Below the pieces are notes generated by a model. That model was given only the letters and a program-made list of their open reading frames with translations, made no database searches and was not told the DNA's origin. A stretch of DNA of 64,000 bases from an uncultured Candidatus Peribacteria bacterium (GTDB lineage Bacteria; Patescibacteriota; Gracilibacteria; Peribacterales; Peribacteraceae), in the NCBI GenBank assembly GCA_964633955.1, contig CAZWIA010000001.1:16820-80819 (forward strand). Reading direction: 5' to 3'. The position numbers and the translations under genes were made by a program. Positions 6,774 to 61,548 of this stretch are shown here, piece by piece; position 1 is the stretch's first letter, and each line of letters opens with the position of its first letter.

Positions 6774-6781
6774 GGGAGAGG

Positions 6782-6868
6782 AGTGGTCAGCGGGTAGGGG
6801 TCAGTGGTCAGAACGAGAAGGGGAGGTCAGTGGTGAGACTGGCCACTGATCACTGACCTCTGACCACT
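6782..6868. repeat. Imperfect palindrome of GGTCAGTGG words in a divergent intergenic region
   Basis: agtggtcag...ggtcagtggtcag...gaggtcagtggtgagactggcc pairs with ggccactgatcactgacctctgaccact. Confidence 0.5.
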
Positions 6869-6922
6869 CGCCATCATCTAGAAACGCGGGAGAAACCGCT
6901 ACTTTTCGTACTACAGAAAATA

Positions 6923-9974: not shown

Positions 9975-10112
9975 GGCTGAAACGGAATAAACGGTAAAAA
10001 GGGAATAAACGGTGAAAAGGGTCAAAAGGGAAAACAGCAATCCCTTCTTGCCCCTTCATCCCTTTTCACCCTTTTGGCCCTTTCGTCCCTTTTCACCCTT
10101 ATTGCCTTTCCG
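9975..10112. repeat. Long imperfect palindrome of AAACGGTRAAAAGGG words between convergent genes
   Basis: aaacggtgaaaagggtcaaaagggaaaa pairs with cccttttcacccttttggccctttcg. Confidence 0.5.
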
Positions 10113-16147: not shown

Positions 16148-16295
16148 GGCGTGCGGGAGTATACTCCTGTGACGGCCGGGCGGCTGTATTATTTCGCTAT
16201 AAAAAGGCGCAGAAGTCCATAGTTGGTCGTCTGTGGTCTGTAGGTCGCATCTATCCTTCAATCAGAATGAAGGTCTACAAACTACTCACTACAAA

Positions 16296-16407
16296 CTAGA
16301 ACCGGTTTGATAAACCGTAGCAGGGGTTCGGTTACCCCTGCGGACCCGCGCGGGTAACCGAACCCGCGCTACGATTCATGGAGGTTGAGGGTTTGTGAGA
16401 CCGGTTC
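16296..16407. repeat. MITE/REP-like palindromic element, copy A (112 bp)
   Basis: Near-identical to 22840-22953. Terminal inverted repeats are gaaccggt...accggttc; the inner stem is gggttcggttaccc/gggtaaccgaaccc. Confidence 0.8.
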
Positions 16408-22125: not shown

Positions 22126-22833
22126 ATGTATTTGAAGACGAAAATGAAGAACACAACAATGATCCTCAAGTCGGGGATGGTCACGGAGCTTCGGCGAGTG
22201 AAAGACCCGGCGGAGCTGGCAACCATCCGCCGTGCCGATCGCATGACGGCAGGATTGATGCGCCGGGCGCGGCAGGTGCTGCGACCGGGGATCACGGAAG
22301 CGTGGCTGGCGCGGCAGCTTCACCGCTGGGCGCTGGAAGCCGGCGCGGATGGTTTGGCCTTCGACCCCATCGTGGGCTTTGGGCCCCATACCGCCCATCC
22401 CCATCACGTTCCGGGCGGGCGGCGGCTGAAGGCCAATGACCACGTGCAGCTAGACCTGGGCGTGAGGCTGAACGGCTACTGCAGCGACCGCAGCGAAATC
22501 CTCTTCATGGGGCGTCCAAAACCGGAAGTGCGGCGGGCGTACCGAGCGGTGAAGCGCGCGGCCGCCGCCGTGATCGCGCACGCGCGGACAGGCGCAAGGA
22601 TCCGGTCGCTTGACCGGCTTGCCAGGCAGGTGCTGCGCGACCAAGGTGTGCCGGATGACTTCCCCCACGCCCTCGGTCACGGGGTAGGACTGGAAGTACA
22701 TGAAGCGCCCACCCTCTCCGCACGCGGGGTGAACCGGGCGCTCAAGCGGGGCGAGGTGCTGGCCATTGAGCCGGCAGTCTACAGAGCCGGGGAGTACGGA
22801 GTCCGGTGGGAGCGCCTGGTGATCGTCCCGTAG
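22126..22833 (+). CDS. M24-family metallopeptidase (Xaa-Pro peptidase-like catalytic domain only)
   Basis: FDPIVGFGPHTAHPHH; DLGVRLNGYCSD; HALGHGVGLEVHE; LAIEPAVY. Start at ATG 22126 inside the longer listed ORF. Confidence 0.85.
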   Translation: MYLKTKMKNTTMILKSGMVTELRRVKDPAELATIRRADRMTAGLMRRARQVLRPGITEAWLARQLHRWALEAGADGLAFDPIVGFGPHTAHPHHVPGGRRLKANDHVQLDLGVRLNGYCSDRSEILFMGRPKPEVRRAYRAVKRAAAAVIAHARTGARIRSLDRLARQVLRDQGVPDDFPHALGHGVGLEVHEAPTLSARGVNRALKRGEVLAIEPAVYRAGEYGVRWERLVIVP

Positions 22834-22839
22834 TACTAA

Positions 22840-22953
22840 CTAGAACCGGTCTCTCATAAACCGTAGCAGGGGTTCGGTTACCCCTGCGGACCCGCGCGGG
22901 TAACCGAACCCGCGCTACGATTCATGGAGGTTGAGGGTTTGTGAGACCGGTTC
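22840..22953. repeat. MITE/REP-like palindromic element, copy B (114 bp)
   Basis: See copy A. It differs only near the left end (ctctcataaacc versus tttgataaacc). Confidence 0.8.
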
Positions 22954-27715: not shown

Positions 27716-30337
27716 GTGACGTTCGTCCTGCGTTTCCTCCTGTGGCCGATCTTCTGGGCGATCCTGGCGCTCGGTGCCTGGGTGTTCCAGTGGGATATCT
27801 GGGGCGTCTTCTGGCGGTGGTACAGCCGGGATCCCGGCTGGAACACGTTCTGGACCGTTCTGTGGATCGCAACCGCGTACGTCGTGTGGCGGGAAGTGAG
27901 CAAGCAGGCCCGGTTCTTCTACGCGCTCTGGATGTCCTCGCACCTGGTGCACATGAAGGTGCTGCTGCCGCGATCGGACACCAAGGTGGACCAGGAGAAG
28001 CGGACGGAGAAGGACTTCAAGGAGAAAGTGGCCATCATGGAGCAGCTCTACCGCGCGCTGTGGGAGGTGAAGGACCTCACGTTCTGGCGGCTGCTGCACT
28101 TCTGGATCACGCGTTTCCTCACCATGAGCTTTGAGCTCTATGTGGAGAACGGGGAGCTCACGTTCTACGTCATCACCCAGCCCAATCTGGTTTCCATTGT
28201 GGAGAAGCAGATCACCGCGTTCTACCCGGATGCGGAGGTGCGCGTGCAGCGCGCGCCGGAAATCTGGCAGCGGGGCTACGTGCTCTCCGCCTATCACATG
28301 CAGACCCGCAAGCCGTTCCAGTATCCCATCCGCTTTTACGAGCAGATGCAGGATGATCCGATCAACGACCTGGCCAACGTGCTTTCCAAGCTGGATGTGG
28401 ATGAGACGGCGTGCATCCAGATGGTCATCACGCCCACCTTCACGGACCGCTGGAGCCGGAAGGTCAAGCGCTTCGCCAGCCTGAAATTCAAGGGCAAGGA
28501 GGACCACTGGGTAGGACGGATCCCGCTCCTCTCAGACTTCATCCGCCTCTTCAGCGGGGTGGCTGCAGGAACGGACGGGCAGACCTTTGCGCCCGGGGCC
28601 AGTTCCGGCGACCAGTTTGTCCGCATGATCCAGCCGGAGGAGGAGCTCTACAAACGGATGGGAGAGAAGGCTGGCATGAGCGGTTTTCACGCCACCATCC
28701 GCCTCTTGGCGTCCGCCAAAACCAAACAGCGCGCGCTGGACATCACCAACAACATGCAGGTGGCGTTCAACGTGTTCAAGGACATCTACGGCAACTGGTT
28801 CATCAACCGGCAGTTCATCAGCAACATCCTCCCCATGGCGTGGAACGCGCCGGTGATGCACTGGCTCTGGCGCCACCGCATCAACGGGTACCTGAGCAGG
28901 CGGCCGCTCCTGGTGGAGCGGGAGCTTGCCGGGCTCTACCACTTCCCGGATAGCCGCTACAACAAGATCCCCATCATCCAGTGGATCAGCTACCGCATCC
29001 TGCCGCCGCCGCCAAACAGCCCGCGGGAGGGGATCCTCCTGGGTCTCAACGAGTACCGGGCGCTGAAGACGGAGATCAGATTCCTACCCGGAGACCGGAC
29101 CCGCCATGAGTACATCATCGGTAAATCCGGCTCGGGTAAATCCGCGCTCCTCTCCTTCCAGGCGCGGCAGGACGTGGCCGCAGGCGAGGGCCTCTGCGTA
29201 GTGGATCCGCACGGGGATTTGATTGAGGACATTCTGGCCCACATCCCCAAGGACCGGGCCAAGGACGTGGTCGTCTTTGATCCGGCGGATGCCGACCGGC
29301 CCATGGGGCTCAACCTGCTGGAGGCTCAAACGGATGAGGAGAAAGACCGTGCGTCGCTGGATGCCATGGAGATCTTCATCAAGCTCTTTGGCAATGAGAT
29401 CTTTGGCCCGCGCATTCAGCACTACTTCCGGAACGGTTGCCTCACGCTCATGGATGACGAGGAGGAGGGAGCCACGCTGATTGATGTCCCTCGCCTCTTT
29501 GTGGATGACGAGTTCCAGCGCTACAAGGTATCAAAGTGCAAGAACGCGGTGGTGCGGAGCTTCTGGGAGCATGAGATCGCCAAGACCGGCGCACGGGAGA
29601 AGGAGGAGATGATCCCGTACTTCTCCGCCAAGTTCGGTCCCTTTGTGACCAATACCACCATGCGCAACATCATTGGCCAGCCCAAGAGCGCCTTCAACAT
29701 CCGCCAGGTGATGGATGAGGGGAAGATCCTGCTGGTGAACCTGTCCAAGGGGAAGATAGGCGATATCAACGCGCAGCTTTTGGGGCTCATCTTTGTGAAC
29801 AAGGTGAACATGGCCGCGCTCTCCCGCGCGGACGTGCCGCAGCGCCAGCGCCGCCGTTTCTACCTGTACGTGGACGAGTTCCAGAACTTTGTCACGGACG
29901 CCTTTGCCACCATCCTCAGCGAGGCCCGCAAGTACGAGTTGGGGCTCATCATGGCGCACCAGTACATCGGCCAGCTGGTGGGCAAGACGGAGGAGTACGG
30001 CCAGGCTTCCACCAAAATGCGGGATGCGGTCTTTGGCAACGTGGGGACCATCCTCAGCTTCAAGATCGGCGCGGAGGACGCGGAGTACATGGTCAAGGAA
30101 TTCGCGCCGGTGCTGAGCGAGCAGGACGTGATCGGCATTCCCAACTTCCACTGCTACGCCAAGCTGAACATCAACAACACCACGTCCCGGCCGTTCAGCA
30201 TGAAGACCATCTACGATGAATCCGACCGGAACGAGAAGCTGGCGGCCCTGATCAAGGAGTACAGCCGCATGAAGTACGGACGGAAGCGGGTGTTCGTGGA
30301 CCAAGAAATAGAAGATAGAATTGGGATTATCAAGTAG
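27716..30337 (+). CDS. VirD4/TraD/TrwB-like type IV coupling protein-like membrane ATPase
   Basis: N-terminal TM helices; Walker A IIGKSGSGKSAL; Walker B RFYLYVDEFQNF; LIMAHQYIGQL. Confidence 0.7.
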   Translation: MTFVLRFLLWPIFWAILALGAWVFQWDIWGVFWRWYSRDPGWNTFWTVLWIATAYVVWREVSKQARFFYALWMSSHLVHMKVLLPRSDTKVDQEKRTEKDFKEKVAIMEQLYRALWEVKDLTFWRLLHFWITRFLTMSFELYVENGELTFYVITQPNLVSIVEKQITAFYPDAEVRVQRAPEIWQRGYVLSAYHMQTRKPFQYPIRFYEQMQDDPINDLANVLSKLDVDETACIQMVITPTFTDRWSRKVKRFASLKFKGKEDHWVGRIPLLSDFIRLFSGVAAGTDGQTFAPGASSGDQFVRMIQPEEELYKRMGEKAGMSGFHATIRLLASAKTKQRALDITNNMQVAFNVFKDIYGNWFINRQFISNILPMAWNAPVMHWLWRHRINGYLSRRPLLVERELAGLYHFPDSRYNKIPIIQWISYRILPPPPNSPREGILLGLNEYRALKTEIRFLPGDRTRHEYIIGKSGSGKSALLSFQARQDVAAGEGLCVVDPHGDLIEDILAHIPKDRAKDVVVFDPADADRPMGLNLLEAQTDEEKDRASLDAMEIFIKLFGNEIFGPRIQHYFRNGCLTLMDDEEEGATLIDVPRLFVDDEFQRYKVSKCKNAVVRSFWEHEIAKTGAREKEEMIPYFSAKFGPFVTNTTMRNIIGQPKSAFNIRQVMDEGKILLVNLSKGKIGDINAQLLGLIFVNKVNMAALSRADVPQRQRRRFYLYVDEFQNFVTDAFATILSEARKYELGLIMAHQYIGQLVGKTEEYGQASTKMRDAVFGNVGTILSFKIGAEDAEYMVKEFAPVLSEQDVIGIPNFHCYAKLNINNTTSRPFSMKTIYDESDRNEKLAALIKEYSRMKYGRKRVFVDQEIEDRIGIIK

Positions 30338-30478: not shown

Positions 30479-30988
30479 ATGCCTCAGAAGCACCTCTCCC
30501 AAGAGGGAACGTTCCACGTCACCACCAACGCCAAGGGCCGCATGCCGTGGTGTACATTGCCGGGCGTGCCGGAGATCCTGATCGATAACCTGTGCATGAC
30601 GCGGTCGGTCCACCGGGCGGAGCTGTTTGCGTTCTGCGTGTTGCCGGACCACGTGCACATGGTGATCCGGCCGGGGGAGAGAGGATTGAGCCGGTTCGTG
30701 CAATCGTTCAAATCCCATGCCATGGTGGAGATTCGTTCCCTGTTTACAAACGTGAATCCCGTAGCAGCGAGCCATGGCTCGCTGCTACGATTACGTGTGA
30801 GGGATATCTTGTGGCAAAAGGGCTATCATGACGAACACATCCAGGATGATGACCAGCTCCACGCCGCCTTGGCGTACGTGCGGGCTAACGCCTGCCGGCA
30901 CGGCCTTTCTGAGACGCCGGAGGACTGGCCGTGGACCTCGCTGCACTTTGGCGATCGGCTGGATGTCTGGAGCCCGTGGTTCGACTGA
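30479..30988 (+). CDS. REP-associated tyrosine transposase (RAYT) / IS200-like Y1 HUH transposase
   Basis: HUH motif LPDHVHMVI; LWQKGYHDEHI; catalytic-Tyr motif LAYVRANACRHGL. Confidence 0.8.
   Translation: MPQKHLSQEGTFHVTTNAKGRMPWCTLPGVPEILIDNLCMTRSVHRAELFAFCVLPDHVHMVIRPGERGLSRFVQSFKSHAMVEIRSLFTNVNPVAASHGSLLRLRVRDILWQKGYHDEHIQDDDQLHAALAYVRANACRHGLSETPEDWPWTSLHFGDRLDVWSPWFD
30760..30789. repeat. 30-nt perfect palindrome with GTAG/CTAC feet inside the RAYT gene
   Basis: cgtagcagcgagccatggctcgctgctacg, read directly. Confidence 0.85.
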
Positions 30989-38170: not shown

Positions 38171-41100
38171 ATGGACAAGCCCTACAGCCCCCGGGAGATA
38201 GAGCCCAAGTGGCAGCGGAAGTGGGAGGAAGCCGGCGTCTTCCGCGTTGACCTGGAAAAGGCGAAGGATCCCTTTTACCTGCTGGTCATGTTCCCGTACC
38301 CCAGCGGCGCGCAGCTCCATGTGGGGCACTGGTTCCAGTACTCGCTGCCAGACAGCTACGGCCGCTTCCTGAAGATGCGCGGCAGAGAGGTATTTCACCC
38401 TATGGGATTTGACGCCTTTGGCCTGCCGGCGGAGAACTACGCCATCAAGACCGGCGTGCCGCCCGCGGTGAGCACAGCGCAGAACGTGGAGAAGATGATC
38501 GACCAGTACAGGAAGATGGGCGTGATGTACCCGTGGGAGTACCTGCTCAATACCAGCGAGCCCCAGTACTACCGCTGGACGCAGTGGCTGTTTCTGCAGA
38601 TGTACGGCGCGGGCCTGGCCTACAAGAAGCTGGGCAACGTGAACTGGTGTCCTAAGGACCAGACAGTCCTAGCCAACGAGCAGGTGCTAGACGGCGCGTG
38701 CGAGCGGTGCGGCACCCAGGTGGTCCAGAAGGCGCTCTCCCAGTGGTACTGGCGGATCACCGCGTATGCCGAGCAGCTGCTGAACGACATGGACGGCCTG
38801 GACTGGCCGGAGCGTACGCGCCTCATGCAGAAGAACTGGATTGGAAAGAGCGAGGGGGCGGAGGTGGTGTTTGAAGTTTGTCCAGGGTTTGTTGGTAGGC
38901 AGGGAATGGATATCGCATGGACAGGGTTAACTGAGGCAGGCATGCGAACAGTGCATCTCATTTTTTCACCCCAGCATCGTAACCGTCTGTTTGAAGAGCT
39001 GTCTGAGGCGACCGAATTACTGAGAATTCTGAAGAGCGTAGCAGAGGGGCATGGCATAGCGTTGCATGAAATTGCTGTCATGCCGGAGCATGTGCATTTG
39101 CTCGTGAGTTTCGATGCCAAGCGGCATCTGGAGAAAGATATTGTGAAAAAATTGAAAGGCTCCAGTGCGCGTGAATTTCTCCGCCGCCGTCGCACTCCGG
39201 GATTTGTTCCGAGTGGCCAACATTTGGGTGGTACCCAACGTTTGGTTAACCAACATTTGGGTAGTTTGGTTAGCCCCCGAATTAATTCGGGGGCTAACCA
39301 AACGGGCATGGCTAACCATAACCAAACGGACCTGGCCGCAGCAGATGCGGCGGAGAATCTGGGTCCCTGGGATGACATAGTTAGCCCCCGAATTAATTCG
39401 GGGGCTAACCAAACGGGCATGGCTAACCATAACCAAACGGACCTGGCCGCAGCAGATGCGGCGGAGAATCTGGGTCCCTGGGATGACATAGAACATCTCT
39501 GGGGGGAGAAAAAGCACTTCAAGGAAATTGAGAACGATGCCCAATTCCAAGCAACCCTGAACTACATCCGCAGTAACCCCAAGGAAGCCGGCCTGGATCC
39601 TGCCGGCCGCACCCTCTCAGAGCTGCCGGAGACCGTCACCGTCTTCACCACCCGGCCGGACACGCTCTTTGGGGCCACGTACCTGGTGCTGGCACCGGAG
39701 CACCCGCTGGTGGATGCCATCACCACGCCTGACCGCGCGGACGCCGTGAACGCGTACAAGGCGGAGACCAAGAAGAAGACGGAGCTCATGCGCCAGGAGA
39801 GCCGGGAGAAGACGGGGGAGTTCACCGGCGCGTACGCGATCAATCCCGCAAACGGAGAGCAGATCCCCGTGTGGATTGCGGACTACGTGCTCATGAACTA
39901 CGGCACCGGCGCCATCATGGCCGTCCCGGCGCATGATGAGCGGGATTTTGATTTTTCAATCAAGTATAACATAGAACGCAGGTGTGTGATCGATCCGGAT
40001 CTATCATCAACAGACGCAACGTTCGACGTAATCTATCGCGGAGGTGGATCTATCGCATTTGATGTAAACGAGACGGGAAGTTCAGTGATTCCGAAGGCAG
40101 CGGAGCTGAAGGCAGCAATTGTAGATGCAAGATTGGGATGGAAAGGTGAAGGAACACTGATCAATTCGGATTTTCTCAATGGTCTTGATGTGAGTGCGGC
40201 CAAGCAGGCCATGACCGACTGGCTGGAGCAGGAGGGCAAGGGGAGGAAGGTGGTGAACTACCGCCTCCGTGACTGGCTCGTCAGCCGCCAGCGGTACTGG
40301 GGCGCGCCCATTCCCATCGTCTACGATCCGGACGGCAACCCGCATCCGGTTCCTGAAGAGCACCTGCCGTGGCTGCTGCCCACGGATGTGGAGTTCCTGC
40401 CCACGGGCGAATCCCCGCTCCGGCAATCTAGGGAGTTCCTGGAACGGACGGAGCGGATCTTTGGCACAGGCTGGACGCCGGAGTATGACACCATGGATAC
40501 GTTCGTATGTTCCAGCTTCTACTATCTCCGGTTCCTGATGAGTGGTCAGGGATCAGTGGTCAGTGGTCAGAATCATGAGGAAAAAAAACTCACCACTCAC
40601 CACTCACCACTGACCACTTCTCCGGGCGATCAATTCGTCAACCTGGAACTTGAGAAGAAGTTCCTCCCCGTAGATCTCTACATTGGCGGGCCGGAGCATG
40701 CCACCATGCACCTCATCTACGCGCGGTTTGTCATGAAGGCACTCCGAGACCTGGGGCACGTCACTCATGCGGAGCCGTTTCAGCGGCTGGTCCACCAGGG
40801 GCTCATCACCAACCAGGGCGCCAAGATGAGCAAGAGCAAAGGAAACGTGGTGAGTCCGGATGACTACGTGGCGCGGTACGGATCGGACGTGTTCCGCATG
40901 TTCCTCATGTTCATGGGGCCGTTCACGGACGGCGGAGACTGGTCGGATACGGGCATCCGCGGGATCGACCGGTTCACGCAGCGCGCGTGGAAGCTGCTCA
41001 CGGAGAAGGTGATGGACGATGAAGAGGCGCCGCAGGTGCGGCAGGCGCTCCATGCCGCCATCAAGCGGGTCACGGAGAGCATTGACCGCCTGCAGTTCAA

Positions 41101-41521
41101 CACGGCGGTGAGCGCCCTCATGGAGTTCCTGAACGCGGCGGAGGCTCATGGTTCGGTCTCCCGGGAGACCGCGCAGATCTTTGTGCGCATGCTCACGCCG
41201 CTCGCGCCGCACCTGGCGGAGGAGCTGTGGGAGAGGCTGGGGGAGCCGGCCTCCGCAGAAGCTACGGCCAGTAAAAAAGAGTTTGCCATCCAGCAGCCCT
41301 GGCCGGCGTATGATCCGGCGCTCCTGGTCGCGGACACGCTGACCATTGCCGTGCAGGTGAACGGGAGGCTGCGCGGGAGCGTGGAGGTCTCCGCGCAGGC
41401 CGGCAAGGAAGAGATCCTGGCCGCTGCCAAAGCGGAGCCAAACGTGCAGAAGCACCTGCAGGGCGCCGCCATCAAGAAGGAAATCTACGTGCCGGGGAAG
41501 CTGGTGAACGTGGTGCTCTGA
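38171..41521 (+). CDS. leuS: Leucine--tRNA ligase carrying large in-frame insertions
   Basis: PYPSGAQLHVGHW (HIGH-like); NWIGKSEGAEVVF; VFTTRPDTLFGATYLVLAPEHPL; YRLRDWLVSRQRYWGAPIP; KMSKSKGN. Confidence 0.95.
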   Translation: MDKPYSPREIEPKWQRKWEEAGVFRVDLEKAKDPFYLLVMFPYPSGAQLHVGHWFQYSLPDSYGRFLKMRGREVFHPMGFDAFGLPAENYAIKTGVPPAVSTAQNVEKMIDQYRKMGVMYPWEYLLNTSEPQYYRWTQWLFLQMYGAGLAYKKLGNVNWCPKDQTVLANEQVLDGACERCGTQVVQKALSQWYWRITAYAEQLLNDMDGLDWPERTRLMQKNWIGKSEGAEVVFEVCPGFVGRQGMDIAWTGLTEAGMRTVHLIFSPQHRNRLFEELSEATELLRILKSVAEGHGIALHEIAVMPEHVHLLVSFDAKRHLEKDIVKKLKGSSAREFLRRRRTPGFVPSGQHLGGTQRLVNQHLGSLVSPRINSGANQTGMANHNQTDLAAADAAENLGPWDDIVSPRINSGANQTGMANHNQTDLAAADAAENLGPWDDIEHLWGEKKHFKEIENDAQFQATLNYIRSNPKEAGLDPAGRTLSELPETVTVFTTRPDTLFGATYLVLAPEHPLVDAITTPDRADAVNAYKAETKKKTELMRQESREKTGEFTGAYAINPANGEQIPVWIADYVLMNYGTGAIMAVPAHDERDFDFSIKYNIERRCVIDPDLSSTDATFDVIYRGGGSIAFDVNETGSSVIPKAAELKAAIVDARLGWKGEGTLINSDFLNGLDVSAAKQAMTDWLEQEGKGRKVVNYRLRDWLVSRQRYWGAPIPIVYDPDGNPHPVPEEHLPWLLPTDVEFLPTGESPLRQSREFLERTERIFGTGWTPEYDTMDTFVCSSFYYLRFLMSGQGSVVSGQNHEEKKLTTHHSPLTTSPGDQFVNLELEKKFLPVDLYIGGPEHATMHLIYARFVMKALRDLGHVTHAEPFQRLVHQGLITNQGAKMSKSKGNVVSPDDYVARYGSDVFRMFLMFMGPFTDGGDWSDTGIRGIDRFTQRAWKLLTEKVMDDEEAPQVRQALHAAIKRVTESIDRLQFNTAVSALMEFLNAAEAHGSVSRETAQIFVRMLTPLAPHLAEELWERLGEPASAEATASKKEFAIQQPWPAYDPALLVADTLTIAVQVNGRLRGSVEVSAQAGKEEILAAAKAEPNVQKHLQGAAIKKEIYVPGKLVNVVL
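38879..39628 (+). mobile_element. In-frame roughly 250-codon insertion in leuS encoding a RAYT/IS200-like Y1 transposase module
   Basis: It lies between the conserved LeuRS motifs GAEVVFEV and ETVTVFTTRPDT. HUH MPEHVHLLV; HLWGEKKHF; LNYIRSNPKEAGL. Visibly lower GC than the flanks. Confidence 0.7.
39269..39490 (+). repeat. Perfect tandem duplication, 2 x 111 bp (37 codons), each starting with a REP-like palindrome
   Basis: Unit gttagcccccgaattaattcgggggctaaccaaacggg...gatgacata repeats at 39269 and 39380. The protein repeat is VSPRINSGANQTGMANHNQTDLAAADAAENLGPWDDI. Confidence 0.95.
40541..40618 (+). repeat. GGTCAGTGG-word palindrome inserted in frame in leuS (26 codons)
   Basis: agtggtcagggatcagtggtcagtggtcag pairs with ctcaccactcaccactcaccactgaccact. 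It encodes SGQGSVVSGQNHEEKKLTTHHSPLTT. Confidence 0.7.
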
Positions 41522-42199: not shown

Positions 42200-43672
42200 A
42201 TGACGGCTTCCCATCCCTTTGACCGCTATGCCGCTTGGATGGACCTGGGGCTCCTCAGGGAGTACTCCGCCCGGCCGCTTAGGAAGTGCGTGCGGGTGAA
42301 TACGCTGAAAGGATCGACCGATGCCTTCCGCGCCTGGGCGGCGGAGCGAGAGTGGAAGCTCACGCCGGTGCCGTGGGCGCCGGAGGGGCTCTGGATCGAT
42401 CGTCCTGTGGCAAGCCCAGAACAGGCTCCGTTGGATGGACCAAAACGCGAAGCTCTAGGCCGCGATCTCCTCCACCTGCTGGGCCACTTCTACATGCAGG
42501 AGGCGGCGTCCATGCTGCCCCCGGCGCTCTTGGATCCGCAGCCTGGGGAGATGGTTTTGGACATGAGCGCCGCACCGGGAAGCAAGACCACGCAGATGGC
42601 GGCCATGATGCGCAATACGGGAGTCATTGTGGCCAATGATGTCCAGGAGAAGCGCCTCTGGACGCTGAAGGCCGCCCAGCACCGGGCGGGCGCGCTGAAC
42701 GTAGTGGTGACCAAGAAGGTGGGGCAGTGGTTTGGCCGCCACATGACGGAGCGCTTTGACCGCGTGCTGTGCGACGCGCCATGCACGGCGCAGGGGACGT
42801 GCCGGAAGGATACGGACGCGCTCCGGTACTGTTCGCCGGATAATATCGCCAAGATGGCGCGGCTCCAGAAGGAGCTCTTGGAAGCCGCCGTCCACGCGGC
42901 CAAGGTGGGCGGGCGCATCGTCTACTCCACCTGCACACTCACGCCGGAGGAGAATGAGGGAGTCATTGCATGGGCGCTGGAGAGGTTCGAAGGAAAGGTG
43001 GAGGCGGTAGATCCGCGATCGAATGTGGAATATCGAATGTCGAATATCGATAGGGCTATTGAAGATTCCCAAGTTGTCCAGAAGTCCCTCGATATTCGCC
43101 ATTCGATATTCGATATTCCAGCCGTCCGGCTGTGGCCGCAGACGTACGACACGGAGGGCTTCTTCTGCGCGGTGTTGCGGAAGACCGCTCGCACCCGCGA
43201 TCCCATGCTGCTGGACGCCGTGCCGTCCCAGGAGCTGCCGCTGGCTCCTAAGCATCAGAAGGAGATCCTGCAGGGGATCGAGCACGCGTTCGGCGCGTCT
43301 CTTGTCCATGAGGGCGAGCGACTGATGCAGCGCGGCGATGTCCTCCTGCTCGCTACGGAATCGGCGGTCCAGTTCCCGCTGCCGGTGCAGGACTACGCGC
43401 TGGGCATCCCGTTTGCCAAGCGGCTCAAAGACGGCCGCATCCGGCTGGACCATGAAGCGGTGACGCTCCGCGGCCAAGAGGCGACCAGGTCCGTGATCAA
43501 TCTCTCCGAGTCCGACCTGGCGCAGCTCCTAGACGGCAGGGACATCACGTGCGATCCCGCGCTGCGCGGCGACATGATCCTGCGCTACCGCGGGATCCCG
43601 GTCGGCCTGGGCCTGGCCAAAGAGGGGAGCCTGAAAAATAACCTGCCGCGCTGGGTGGTGCAGCGGGCGTGA
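42200..43672 (+). CDS. NOL1/NOP2/Sun-family rRNA (cytosine-C5) methyltransferase (RsmF/RsmB-like)
   Basis: YMQEAASMLPP; DMSAAPGSKTTQ; FDRVLCDAPCTAQGTCRKD; IVYSTCTLTPEENEGVI. Confidence 0.85.
   Translation: MTASHPFDRYAAWMDLGLLREYSARPLRKCVRVNTLKGSTDAFRAWAAEREWKLTPVPWAPEGLWIDRPVASPEQAPLDGPKREALGRDLLHLLGHFYMQEAASMLPPALLDPQPGEMVLDMSAAPGSKTTQMAAMMRNTGVIVANDVQEKRLWTLKAAQHRAGALNVVVTKKVGQWFGRHMTERFDRVLCDAPCTAQGTCRKDTDALRYCSPDNIAKMARLQKELLEAAVHAAKVGGRIVYSTCTLTPEENEGVIAWALERFEGKVEAVDPRSNVEYRMSNIDRAIEDSQVVQKSLDIRHSIFDIPAVRLWPQTYDTEGFFCAVLRKTARTRDPMLLDAVPSQELPLAPKHQKEILQGIEHAFGASLVHEGERLMQRGDVLLLATESAVQFPLPVQDYALGIPFAKRLKDGRIRLDHEAVTLRGQEATRSVINLSESDLAQLLDGRDITCDPALRGDMILRYRGIPVGLGLAKEGSLKNNLPRWVVQRA
43026..43120 (+). 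repeat. AT-rich GAATATCGA-word palindrome embedded in the methyltransferase CDS
   Basis: tggaatatcgaatgtcgaatatcga pairs with tcgatattcgccattcgatattcgatattcca. It encodes VEYRMSNIDRAIEDSQVVQKSLDIRHSIFDIP. Confidence 0.7.
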
Positions 43673-44085: not shown

Positions 44086-44120
44086 GGAATCGGAACAAAA
44101 GGACTTCCGTTGTTTGGTTA

Positions 44121-44160
44121 GTTTGGTTAGCCCCCGATGTACATCGGGGGCTAACCAAAC
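44121..44160. repeat. REP-like 40-nt perfect palindrome, same family as those in leuS
   Basis: gtttggttagcccccgatgtacatcgggggctaaccaaac. It shares gtttggttagcccccga / tcgggggctaaccaaac with 39264-39303. Confidence 0.85.
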
Positions 44161-44242
44161 GTGCTCGGGCGTATCCCTTGCTTAAAGTTCACCCGCAGTT
44201 CTGTAACGACACGCGCTCCGTCCGGTGTATACTCCCACCCCC

Positions 44243-45981: not shown

Positions 45982-46046
45982 GGTTACGAGTTTGGAGTTA
46001 CAAGTTATGCCGCCCAACTCGTAACTCGATACTTGTAACTCGTACC
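45982..46046. repeat. GTTACGAG-word palindrome after dnaG
   Basis: ggttacgagtttggagttacaagtt pairs with aactcgtaactcgatacttgtaactcgtacc. Same word family as 2022-2100. Confidence 0.5.
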
Positions 46047-59244: not shown

Positions 59245-59391
59245 GCGTTCGTCGATGATGCGACTGGGGTACAATGGCCAAATCCCAAGCACCAAATCCC
59301 AAATAAGTTCCAAACCAAAAACTAAAAACCATAAACCAAAAACTTCCGAATCCCCTCTCGACCAATCCCCTACTCGCATTCACTCGAATTG

Positions 59392-60132: not shown

Positions 60133-60238
60133 GTTAGCTTTTTAGCTGCTTAGCTTCACTCGAACTCCTTCTCCCATGTATCCATCTCCTAACACCTCTG
60201 AAAGCTCATCAGCTAACAAACTAAAAAGCTAAGAAGCT
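60133..60238. repeat. TTAGCT-word palindrome between ABC genes
   Basis: gttagctttttagctgcttagctt pairs with agctaacaaactaaaaagctaagaagct. Confidence 0.45.
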
Positions 60239-60267
60239 CACAAGCTCGTCATTCATCCATCCTCAAC

Positions 60268-61488: not shown

Positions 61489-61548
61489 TGATCCGGTAGA
61501 GGCGCCCTGTCAGGGCGCCTCTACCGGCATCCCCAATTGCATCATCCC

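Follow-up and report, generated by a model that had tools for sequence, protein, structure and literature searches.

The 64,000-nt stretch analysed here (hereafter the window) comes from an uncultured Candidatus Peribacteria bacterium (GenBank assembly GCA_964633955.1, contig CAZWIA010000001.1, positions 16,820 to 80,819 of the forward strand). Its plus strand carries a leucyl-tRNA synthetase gene, leuS (38171-41521 with the stop included, ATG at 38171, 1116 aa), in which a transposase domain, perfect palindromes and a tandem duplication are read in frame. The product matches the Pfam families tRNA-synt_1, editing domain and Anticodon_1, and aligns with the leucyl-tRNA synthetase (LeuRS) of T. 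thermophilus (1h3n) with an E-value of 3e-202. Where the CP1 editing domain begins, six residues of the T. thermophilus enzyme (237-242) are replaced by a 252-aa in-frame insert (38879-39634, plus strand), flanked by ...GKSEGAEVVFEV and TVFTTRPDTLFGA.... This insert matches Pfam PF01797 (Y1_Tnp; E 2e-13, 51-54 bits for a cut-off of 23), and its closest solved relatives by profile are the TnpA proteins of ISDra2 and ISHp608 (E 1.5e-12 for ISDra2 TnpA, 2xm3). Against the NCBIfam IS200/IS605 model, the window copy, which is interrupted, obtains 51 bits, below the cut-off of 55, and its uninterrupted ortholog at locus L097 obtains 61.9 bits, above it; L097 misses the cut-off for REP-associated tyrosine transposases (RAYTs; REP, repetitive extragenic palindromic). 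Judged from these profile matches, the insert is an IS200/RAYT-type Y1 (HUH) transposase domain. The original prediction had rightly located a palindrome in a ‘leuS insert’, but had overlooked that this insert is a transposase domain.

The core of the Y1 domain falls into an N-terminal part (38942-39181, plus strand; MRTVHLIF...KGSSAREFL), with the HUH motif HVH at 39089-39097, and a C-terminal part (39491-39625, plus strand; EHLWGEKKHF...LNYIRSNP...GRTLSEL), with the catalytic tyrosine codon at 39563-39565. Its motifs read HLIFSPQHR, MPEHVHLLV (HUH), KGSSAREF and LNYIRSNP (Tyr). The loop that joins the KGSSAREF helix to the HLW strand is extended by a lineage-specific 99-aa sub-insert (39194-39490, plus strand), which holds all the repeats discussed below; it is unique to the window and missing from all 12 other leuS-embedded orthologs aligned. 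Two other identities were considered for the 252-aa insert and rejected: an intein, as the end of the insert is without a C-terminal His-Asn followed by Cys, Ser or Thr and the insert is conserved as protein, and a group I/II intron or IStron, as Rfam at E-values up to 1 gave chance matches only. A word-indexed protein search with the 252-aa insert returned no match; LeuRS-embedded and free-standing Y1 relatives were found by exhaustive HMMER search. Among the RNA-seq runs listed, none contained the leuS locus. Further downstream, at approximately 39995-40140 (LeuRS residues approx. 610-657), the editing region carries another window-specific insertion of approximately 35 residues relative to L001 and T. 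thermophilus (DATFDVIYRGGGSIAFDVNETGSSVIPKAAELKAAIVDARLG), in which no repeat or palindrome was noticed.

Sequence read-out and repeat finders agree on a perfect 40-nt palindrome (20 + 20 nt) within the sub-insert, at 39264-39303 (GTTTGGTTAGCCCCCGAATTAATTCGGGGGCTAACCAAAC), which includes a family-wide 30-nt core at 39269-39298 (GTTAGCCCCCGAATTAATTCGGGGGCTAAC); the hairpin region of leuS also includes VSPRINSGANQTGMANHNQ. A sister palindrome with the same arms and the altered centre TGTACA (GTTTGGTTAGCCCCCGATGTACATCGGGGGCTAACCAAAC) lies at 44121-44160, as had been noted before, between the gene of an RF-1/GGQ-domain protein, 36 nt past its stop, and dnaG, 64 nt ahead of it. The two loci are homologous over 52 nt (39256-39307 versus 44113-44164, 88%), and both palindromes are still perfect because the differences between their centres are two compensated double changes. 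With up to three mismatches, the pattern GGTTAGCCCCCGA-N6-TCGGGGGCTAACC has three matches in the window versus 0.00 expected from 100 shuffles. As DNA hairpins, the 40-nt palindromes and the 30-nt perfect palindrome have free energies of about -22.5 (-22.5 for that of leuS, z = -8.0) and -15.6 kcal/mol (z = -5.7), respectively. The window copies read GTTAG, not the GTAG tag of REPs. Directly 5' of the 40-nt palindrome, repeat finders reported degenerate repeats (39217-39263), namely a 15-bp period present 2.7 times (39217-39260) and an 84% palindrome with centre GTTAAC (39232-39263), which resembles the outer arms GTTTGGTTA/TAACCAAAC minus the GC core; the latter may represent a decayed copy of the palindrome.

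The palindrome of leuS is also the starting point of a tandem duplication. A first unit of 111 bp, or 37 codons (39269-39379, plus strand), begins at the exact 5' edge of the 30-nt core and is followed by a second, 100% identical unit (39380-39490) with a 30-nt perfect palindrome at 39380-39409 (Tandem Repeats Finder score 446, 2.0 copies). The translation of the 1116-aa product agrees with the addition of 37 identical codons (VSPRINSGANQTGMANHNQTDLAAADAAENLGPWDDI x2), the leuS frame being kept. Metagenomes containing the organism come from wastewater (runs X1 and X2, one study) and aquaculture (X3, another study), and the palindrome at 44121 was detected in all three. Both X1 and X2 contain a mismatch-free 59-nt unitig across the junction (39351-39409), at depths of 9.6 and 21.4 for flanks at 15.4 and approximately 24-26, respectively, i.e. 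at about single-copy depth. The 107-nt unitig of the unit is raised approximately 1.5-1.7-fold in both runs, and the downstream unitig of X2 starts at 39462, the branch point expected of a k = 31 graph. The duplication is thus genuine. It is also very recent, which the original prediction had named as one of its readings. The junction unitig was found neither in X3 (17-22x depth) nor in X5 (approx. 6x); there, the downstream unitig passes 39490/39491 unbranched and the palindrome unitig is at approximately 1x depth, which is consistent with a single 111-bp unit in these populations. Accordingly, the copy number of the unit appears to differ between populations, as had been envisaged. Within the protein collection, the two-unit 1116-aa LeuRS is a singleton, derived from one 81-kb NCBI contig. 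An apparent joint in X2 that skips 38841-39638 was considered as a precise-excision form and rejected: the contig (576 nt, 3.7x) matches over 34 nt only and diverges on both sides, and is therefore attributed to the leuS of another organism.

Tandem repeats that are perfect or nearly so also abut palindromes, independently, in relatives. The leuS linker contains, in frame, 3.0 copies of 51 bp at L086:3820-3974, next to a family palindrome, and an 8-residue peptide repeated about three times (24 bp) next to the palindrome of L236. An intergenic repeat at L106:1568-1689 (2 x 61 bp, not a multiple of three) also abuts a palindrome, and a RAYT gene at L244 has 3.2 copies of a 30-bp repeat at its REP hairpins. 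The earlier suggestion that frame preservation acts as a filter agrees with these lengths, the units being of 51 and 24 bp in leuS linkers and of 61 bp between genes. That the window duplication starts at the 5' foot of the core is a weak hint at site-specific nicking by an enzyme, to which we give little weight because the breakpoints of the L086 and L106 repeats lie at positions other than the 5' foot of the core.

The nearest genomes are metagenome-assembled genomes (MAGs) of Candidatus Peribacteria/Peregrinibacteria, of the candidate phyla radiation (CPR). A Y1 insert occurs at the identical leuS site in at least 13 further Peribacteria/Peregrinibacteria contigs (L001/L084, L002, L081-L083, L085-L088, L097, L149, L200 and L236-L238), and in contigs recovered via the Y1 core the domain is always inside leuS, at this constant site. 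Loci were found with a 4-sequence Y1 alignment, a 12-sequence alignment being too diverse; the leuS copies of L097, L149 and L200 are three extra ones, found through palindrome scans. The arrangement is not universal, as L003-L006 carry leuS without the Y1 insert, whereas L001 and L002 carry it. In pairwise comparisons of 13 orthologs, the Y1 core is on average 56% identical and the LeuRS body 61%, and both the HUH motif and the catalytic tyrosine motif, Y(I/L)xxN, are invariant in all 13 sequences aligned. At the level of sequence comparison, these near-equal identities and the invariant motifs indicate purifying selection on the Y1 domain, catalytic residues included.

The leuS-type Y1 domain is present in one copy in the window. 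Free-standing relatives of approximately 170-240 aa, up to 53% identical (P0001-P0008; L233:2866-3567), were found in metagenomes and, for L233, in a Peribacterales MAG; in L233 the RAYT model outscores the IS200 model, while still under the RAYT cut-off. In several of them, peptide traces of palindromes flank the core at either end (GLKPA..., ...GFIPQR), as would be expected of an ancestral hairpin-flanked element. A more distant 998-aa LeuRS fragment from a low-GC CPR bacterium (P0016) has a Y1 domain at the identical site, and a second large insert further downstream that is hydrolase-type in appearance. At L088:3910-4002, in a Peregrinibacteria MAG, the leuS frame has its opening inside the palindrome, just 24 codons ahead of the Y1 core. 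Either the hairpin divides leuS into two open reading frames (ORFs), or the position contains a frameshift or an error of assembly.

The association between palindrome and Y1 core extends to these orthologs. In all 10 that were scanned at DNA level, the Y1 core is preceded at a distance of 50-110 nt by a palindrome that is perfect over 28-38 nt and in frame in leuS (examples are GTTAGCTGCCGATTTAAATCGGCAGCTAAC, GTTAGCCGGCGGTTTAAACCGCCGGCTAAC, CGTTAACCCCCGATTTAAATCGGGGGTTAACG and GGTAGCCGGCGGTTTAAACCGCCGGCTACC). Such an upstream palindrome was also found in L097, L236 and L238. A second small hairpin lies approximately 20 nt ahead of the core in five of the 10, and no hairpin with a stem of at least 8 was found within 200 nt downstream of the core in any of the 10. 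In the window, no hairpin precedes the Y1 core, so that the palindrome has effectively been relocated into the Y1 loop. Four Peribacteria/Peregrinibacteria loci that lack the insert contain, over 9-14 kb, no palindrome whose stem reaches 11.

Members of the family have a common design, being perfect over 28-40 nt, with a G-T/G-T-A-G/A-C motif, a GC-rich run and an AT-rich centre; the outer motifs of relatives read GTTAGC, GTTAAC, GGTAGC or GGTAAC. A metagenome scan placed the exact 30-nt core of the window ahead of the Y1 core in L097 (LeuRS only 58% identical to that of the window); L236, too, has it ahead of the Y1 core. It recurs at four more positions, namely in L099, in L093 and twice in L106. 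One L106 copy lies in frame in yebC and adds 10 residues (VSPRINSGAN) relative to E. coli YebC; the L236 copy is read in the same frame (VSPRINSGAN). Scattered copies match the stem of the leuS copy (L136 that of L086; L178 that of L083; L117, L159 and L161 that of L200). Among the matches listed, scattered copies in Y1-bearing Peribacteria genomes have the same or compensated stems, and are mostly intergenic and often directly past a stop codon. Related genomes hold at least 2-6 copies each. For the organism of the window, one or two further loci in the reads add to the two in 64 kb, giving about 3-4 loci. One extra read copy (flanks ...GATCCATGGA / TTGGATGAAGG...) was considered as an ortholog of the L106 yebC copy and rejected, its translated flanks being unlike YebC; by its sequence it belongs to another locus. 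An exact scan of GTDB genomes for the window palindrome gave no match.

Conservation of symmetry in this family is strict. Over 34 distinct sites, the 15-bp core is approximately 100% Watson-Crick; 12 of 17 pairs have changed on both sides (111 cells) and none on one side, a result equalled by none of 500 shuffles. With no G-U-type state across these sites, the pattern favours a constraint on the symmetry of the DNA over one on RNA folding. No Rfam family matched the hairpins.

A second Y1 gene, which the original prediction had overlooked together with its own in-frame palindrome, stands approximately 8 kb from the leuS palindromes. This ORF (30479-30988, plus strand), located through a weak tblastn match, obtains 102 bits with NCBIfam REP_Tyr_transpos (cut-off 80); its AlphaFold2 model (pLDDT 91) has E. 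coli TnpA_REP (4er8) as top Foldseek match (E 7.5e-9, TM 0.69). By profile and predicted fold, it is a bona fide, free-standing RAYT. In frame within it is a 30-nt perfect palindrome with a CGTAGC head (30760-30789, CGTAGCAGCGAGCCATGGCTCGCTGCTACG), in a loop homologous to the one that bears the leuS palindrome; the stretch it encodes lies in the sole internal low-confidence region of the model (residues 91-110). Across 21 aligned proteins of the clade (that of the window and 20 homologs), this loop varies from 0 to approximately 75 residues and reads like translated palindromes or repeats. Four of five other homologous RAYT genes examined as DNA have a perfect palindrome or hairpin there (L240, L242, L244 and L246), and in L244 the gene-internal hairpin is identical to a hairpin flanking the gene on both sides and is part of the 30-bp tandem repeat mentioned above. 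Two genomes share the order Mg-chelatase/ComM-like gene, RAYT, pyrF, a synteny that suggests vertical inheritance. The window RAYT is outside this context, and directly upstream of it is a gene for a type IV secretion coupling-protein-like ATPase (T4SS-DNA_transf/TrwB; 27716-30337). Two intergenic copies (96%) of an element of at least 115 nt were also observed (16285-16400 and 22830-22947), with a REPIN-like doublet of two inverted GTAG-tagged hairpins at the centre (CCGTAGCAGGGGTTCGGTTACCCCTGCGG ACC CGCGCGGGTAACCGAACCCGCGCTACG). Because these elements share the head and tail CCGTAGCAG...CTACGATT with the RAYT-internal palindrome, they probably constitute the REP family of this RAYT.

Other palindromic features were observed besides these. 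A further perfect intergenic palindrome with GTAG...CTAC ends is found at 61493-61527 (CCGGTAGAGGCGCCCTGTCAGGGCGCCTCTACCGG). The window also has many hairpins whose arms consist of tandem heptamers (or 9-mers) followed by reverse-complement heptamers (2019-2101, 6781-6873, 9981-10109, 40534-40625, 43018-43120, 45985-46044, 59278-59343 and 60134-60246), each locus having a separate heptamer (AGTTACG, AGTGGTC, TCGAATG and others). They are mostly intergenic, that at 40534-40625 being in frame in leuS (peptide SGQGSVVSGQNHEEKKLTTHHSPLTTSPG) and that at 43018-43120 in frame in an rsmB/F-like gene. Outside the CPR, a near-identical perfect palindrome, (C)ATAGCCCACGGTTTAAACCGTGGGCTAT(G), of a design like that of the Peribacteria palindromes, occurs among the matches listed in dozens of Bacteroidota genera (loci L113-L232), as well as in a Methylococcaceae MAG and a Prosthecochloris MAG; L139 has six copies in 850 bp, mostly with 62-63-bp spacing.

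We consider it fairly probable that the leuS-type palindromes are REP-type hairpins of a Peribacteria-wide family, physically tied to the IS200-like Y1 domain in leuS. Y1 (HUH) enzymes bind hairpins on single-stranded DNA, namely REPs in the case of RAYTs and subterminal hairpins in that of IS200/IS605 TnpA. By analogy, the palindromes would be cognate substrates of the leuS-embedded Y1 domain, which might occasionally move or copy them. The comparisons show that an ancestor of a Peribacteria/Peregrinibacteria clade gained a Y1 module and its preceding hairpin in a variable loop where the editing domain of LeuRS begins, and that the module was retained at this site with HUH and tyrosine intact, nearly as conserved as LeuRS itself. 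In the lineage of the window, the upstream palindrome is gone, and a palindrome-bearing segment of approximately 300 nt lies within a loop of the Y1 domain. Since independent perfect tandem repeats abut palindromes in three relatives and in a RAYT gene, we infer that slippage during replication, or a template switch, at the hairpin gave rise to the 111-bp duplication. Because leuS is essential, a duplication would persist only if it is free of stops, a multiple of three in length and placed in a tolerant loop. One of the three frames of the palindrome core contains stops, and the two frames used in genes are free of them.

Several points weigh against this interpretation. Binding, cutting or moving of hairpins by the leuS-Y1 domain is an argument by analogy, and the window domain, split by the 99-aa insert, may be inactive; the single-sequence AlphaFold model of the leuS insert (pLDDT 45.6) is uninformative. 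Copy number is low, unlike that of classical REPs (although the per-genome counts are lower bounds), and the window copies are without the GTAG tag. A right-end hairpin follows the Y1 core in none of the 10 orthologs, which rules the module out as a functional IS200-type element. Pairwise identities of Y1 core and LeuRS correlate weakly (r = 0.21), and strict co-descent of the two is therefore not proven. The call of no duplication in X3 and X5 is unitig-based, and unitigs prove presence better than absence. Lastly, the true RAYT of the same genome could be the acting enzyme, and hairpin-templated mutation alone, without any protein, could maintain perfect symmetry.

Of the competing explanations, the one that survives best, though we hold it to be unlikely, makes the GTTAGC palindromes REPs of the free-standing RAYT, their position beside the leuS Y1 domain being a historical leftover. 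Indeed, a bona fide RAYT is close at hand, its palindromes are of like design (GTAGC head, GC-rich stem, palindromic centre), and the leuS-type palindromes of several relatives begin with GGTAGC, which contains the GTAG tag. However, the RAYT-type elements of the window have their own head and tail, CCGTAGCAG...CTACGATT, unlike GTTTGGTTAGCCCCCGA, and the RAYT of L244 is flanked and interrupted by a distinct hairpin of its own. Moreover, each ortholog scanned has a leuS-type palindrome ahead of its Y1 core, and the species-specific stems recur in the scattered copies.

It appears less plausible still that the palindromes are RNA or transcriptional signals (terminators, attenuators or mRNA stabilizers) with no link to a transposase. 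Signals of all these types are known among REPs (PMC3733652). The hairpins are very stable, and scattered copies often follow a stop codon directly (44121 in the window; L176, L106). Yet a terminator scan found no intrinsic terminator at 44121, where there is no T-tract, and copies within essential ORFs (leuS, yebC) would be in a harmful place for a terminator. The lack of G-U-type one-sided changes across the 34 sites points to DNA symmetry and not to an RNA fold, Rfam gave no match, and the co-location with Y1 domains is left unexplained.

A comparably slim chance is given to the idea that the palindromes are by-products without function, i.e. quasi-palindromes perfected by intrastrand template switching and tolerated, with the duplication as ordinary slippage. 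The strictly Watson-Crick symmetry, the recurrence of tandem duplications at palindromes and the hypervariability of the leuS linker and loop would all agree with it. What it cannot explain is the occurrence of identical 30-nt sequences at several unlinked loci of one genome and in lineages whose LeuRS are only 58% identical, the constant position beside Y1 domains, or the outer motif (GTTAGC/GTTAAC/GGTAGC) common across species. Finally, perfect repeats beside palindromes are error-prone in short-read assembly and the exact two-unit protein is known from one contig, but an assembly artefact is very hard to reconcile with mismatch-free, junction-spanning unitigs at about single-copy depth in two independent runs, a raised unit depth and a de Bruijn branch where expected (39462 in X2).

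Returning to the preferred reading, in which the hairpins are tied to the leuS Y1 domain, likenesses with several known systems can be drawn, none of them complete. Short GC-rich palindromes linked to a single-copy, vertically inherited Y1/HUH enzyme recall the REP/RAYT pairing, as do the species-specific stems common to scattered copies, mostly 3' of genes. The 40-nt and 30-nt palindromes are short (20-40 nt), stable hairpins, and association with a Y1 enzyme and genome-specific stems are both observed, the palindrome being upstream of the core in orthologs and inside the domain in the window. In-frame intragenic REPs have been described, tRNA synthetase genes included, as have REPtrons, i.e. 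RAYTs flanked by REPs (PMC3733652). Nevertheless, the Peribacteria palindromes are perfect and loopless over 28-40 nt, the window copies read GTTAG where REPs have GTAG, and the few copies differ from the tens to hundreds, mainly extragenic, of classical REPs. Unlike in REPtrons, the hairpin is inside or directly upstream of the enzyme's own coding sequence instead of flanking a free gene, and the leuS enzyme is nearer to IS200/IS605 TnpA than to RAYTs in sequence, besides being a domain of LeuRS. The earlier notion of a REP-like family thus stands in part: the family is real and its hairpins are tied to Y1/HUH enzymes, but it is low-copy, and its copies in the window read GTTAG.

With IS200/IS605 elements, the system shares the Y1 HUH domain with its tyrosine, best matched by ISDra2 and ISHp608 TnpA. 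The left end of IS200 carries two hairpins, and in five of the 10 scanned orthologs a long and a second small hairpin stand just upstream of the core. On the other side, only one end has hairpins, these are perfect palindromes, there is no sign of multiple element copies, and the module occupies a single fixed orthologous site in an essential gene, where it is read through in frame. Since copy number and, in the window, the missing GTAG tag set the system apart from REPs, and the right end and mobility set it apart from IS200, we regard the palindromes and leuS-Y1 as a variation on the REP/Y1 theme, belonging to neither family. The Rickettsia palindromic elements are the classic case of in-frame insertion. 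Like them, the Peribacteria palindromes reside in frame in still-functional genes and encode peptide segments in surface loops (the leuS Y1 loop, yebC of L106 and the RAYT loop); unlike them, they are far smaller (30-40 nt, with no sequence relation expected), linked to a Y1 enzyme and located in that enzyme's own gene. Palindrome-stimulated slippage or template switching offers a last parallel, with perfect tandem duplications, breakpoints in or beside the hairpin, microhomology of 1-3 nt and palindromes that remain perfectly symmetric. It accounts for the duplication and perhaps for the symmetry, but not for the spread of identical copies or the link with Y1.

Literature searches on LeuRS and IS200, on Peribacteria and palindromes, and on RAYTs and the CPR found nothing relevant. 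Within the literature searched, an in-frame Y1/HUH domain as a fixed part of leuS throughout a bacterial class, a hairpin inside or directly before its enzyme's own coding sequence, and the in-gene hairpin habit of the RAYT genes of this clade all appear to be undescribed. The duplication itself is an ordinary type of event in an unusual place; the interest lies in the transposase domain in LeuRS and in the hairpins in Y1 genes.

As a tentative proposal, more doubtful than the link between hairpins and domain, Peribacteria Y1/HUH enzymes may keep their cognate hairpin in their own reading frame. The IS200-like one, domesticated or entrenched as a catalytically intact module of an essential LeuRS, would still process palindromes, and host proteins, its own among them, would thereby acquire peptide insertions in frame and hypervariable tandem repeats. 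A selfish or housekeeping DNA enzyme would then have become impossible to lose through its fusion to an enzyme of translation. With its small size, the system lends itself to direct study with oligonucleotides and recombinant protein. If the preferred reading holds, REP-type hairpins can reside in the gene of their own enzyme family, a compact linkage of enzyme and substrate unlike the flanking arrangement of REPtrons. Such hairpins would be hotspots of in-frame length variation that differs between natural populations, and one could use the length variants as strain markers or treat them as natural experiments on the tolerance of LeuRS and Y1 enzymes to insertions. A whole CPR lineage would then have, within an essential aminoacyl-tRNA synthetase, a conserved HUH transposase domain with intact catalytic motifs. 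This would be either a striking exaptation or the escape of a mobile element from loss via in-frame embedding in an essential gene.

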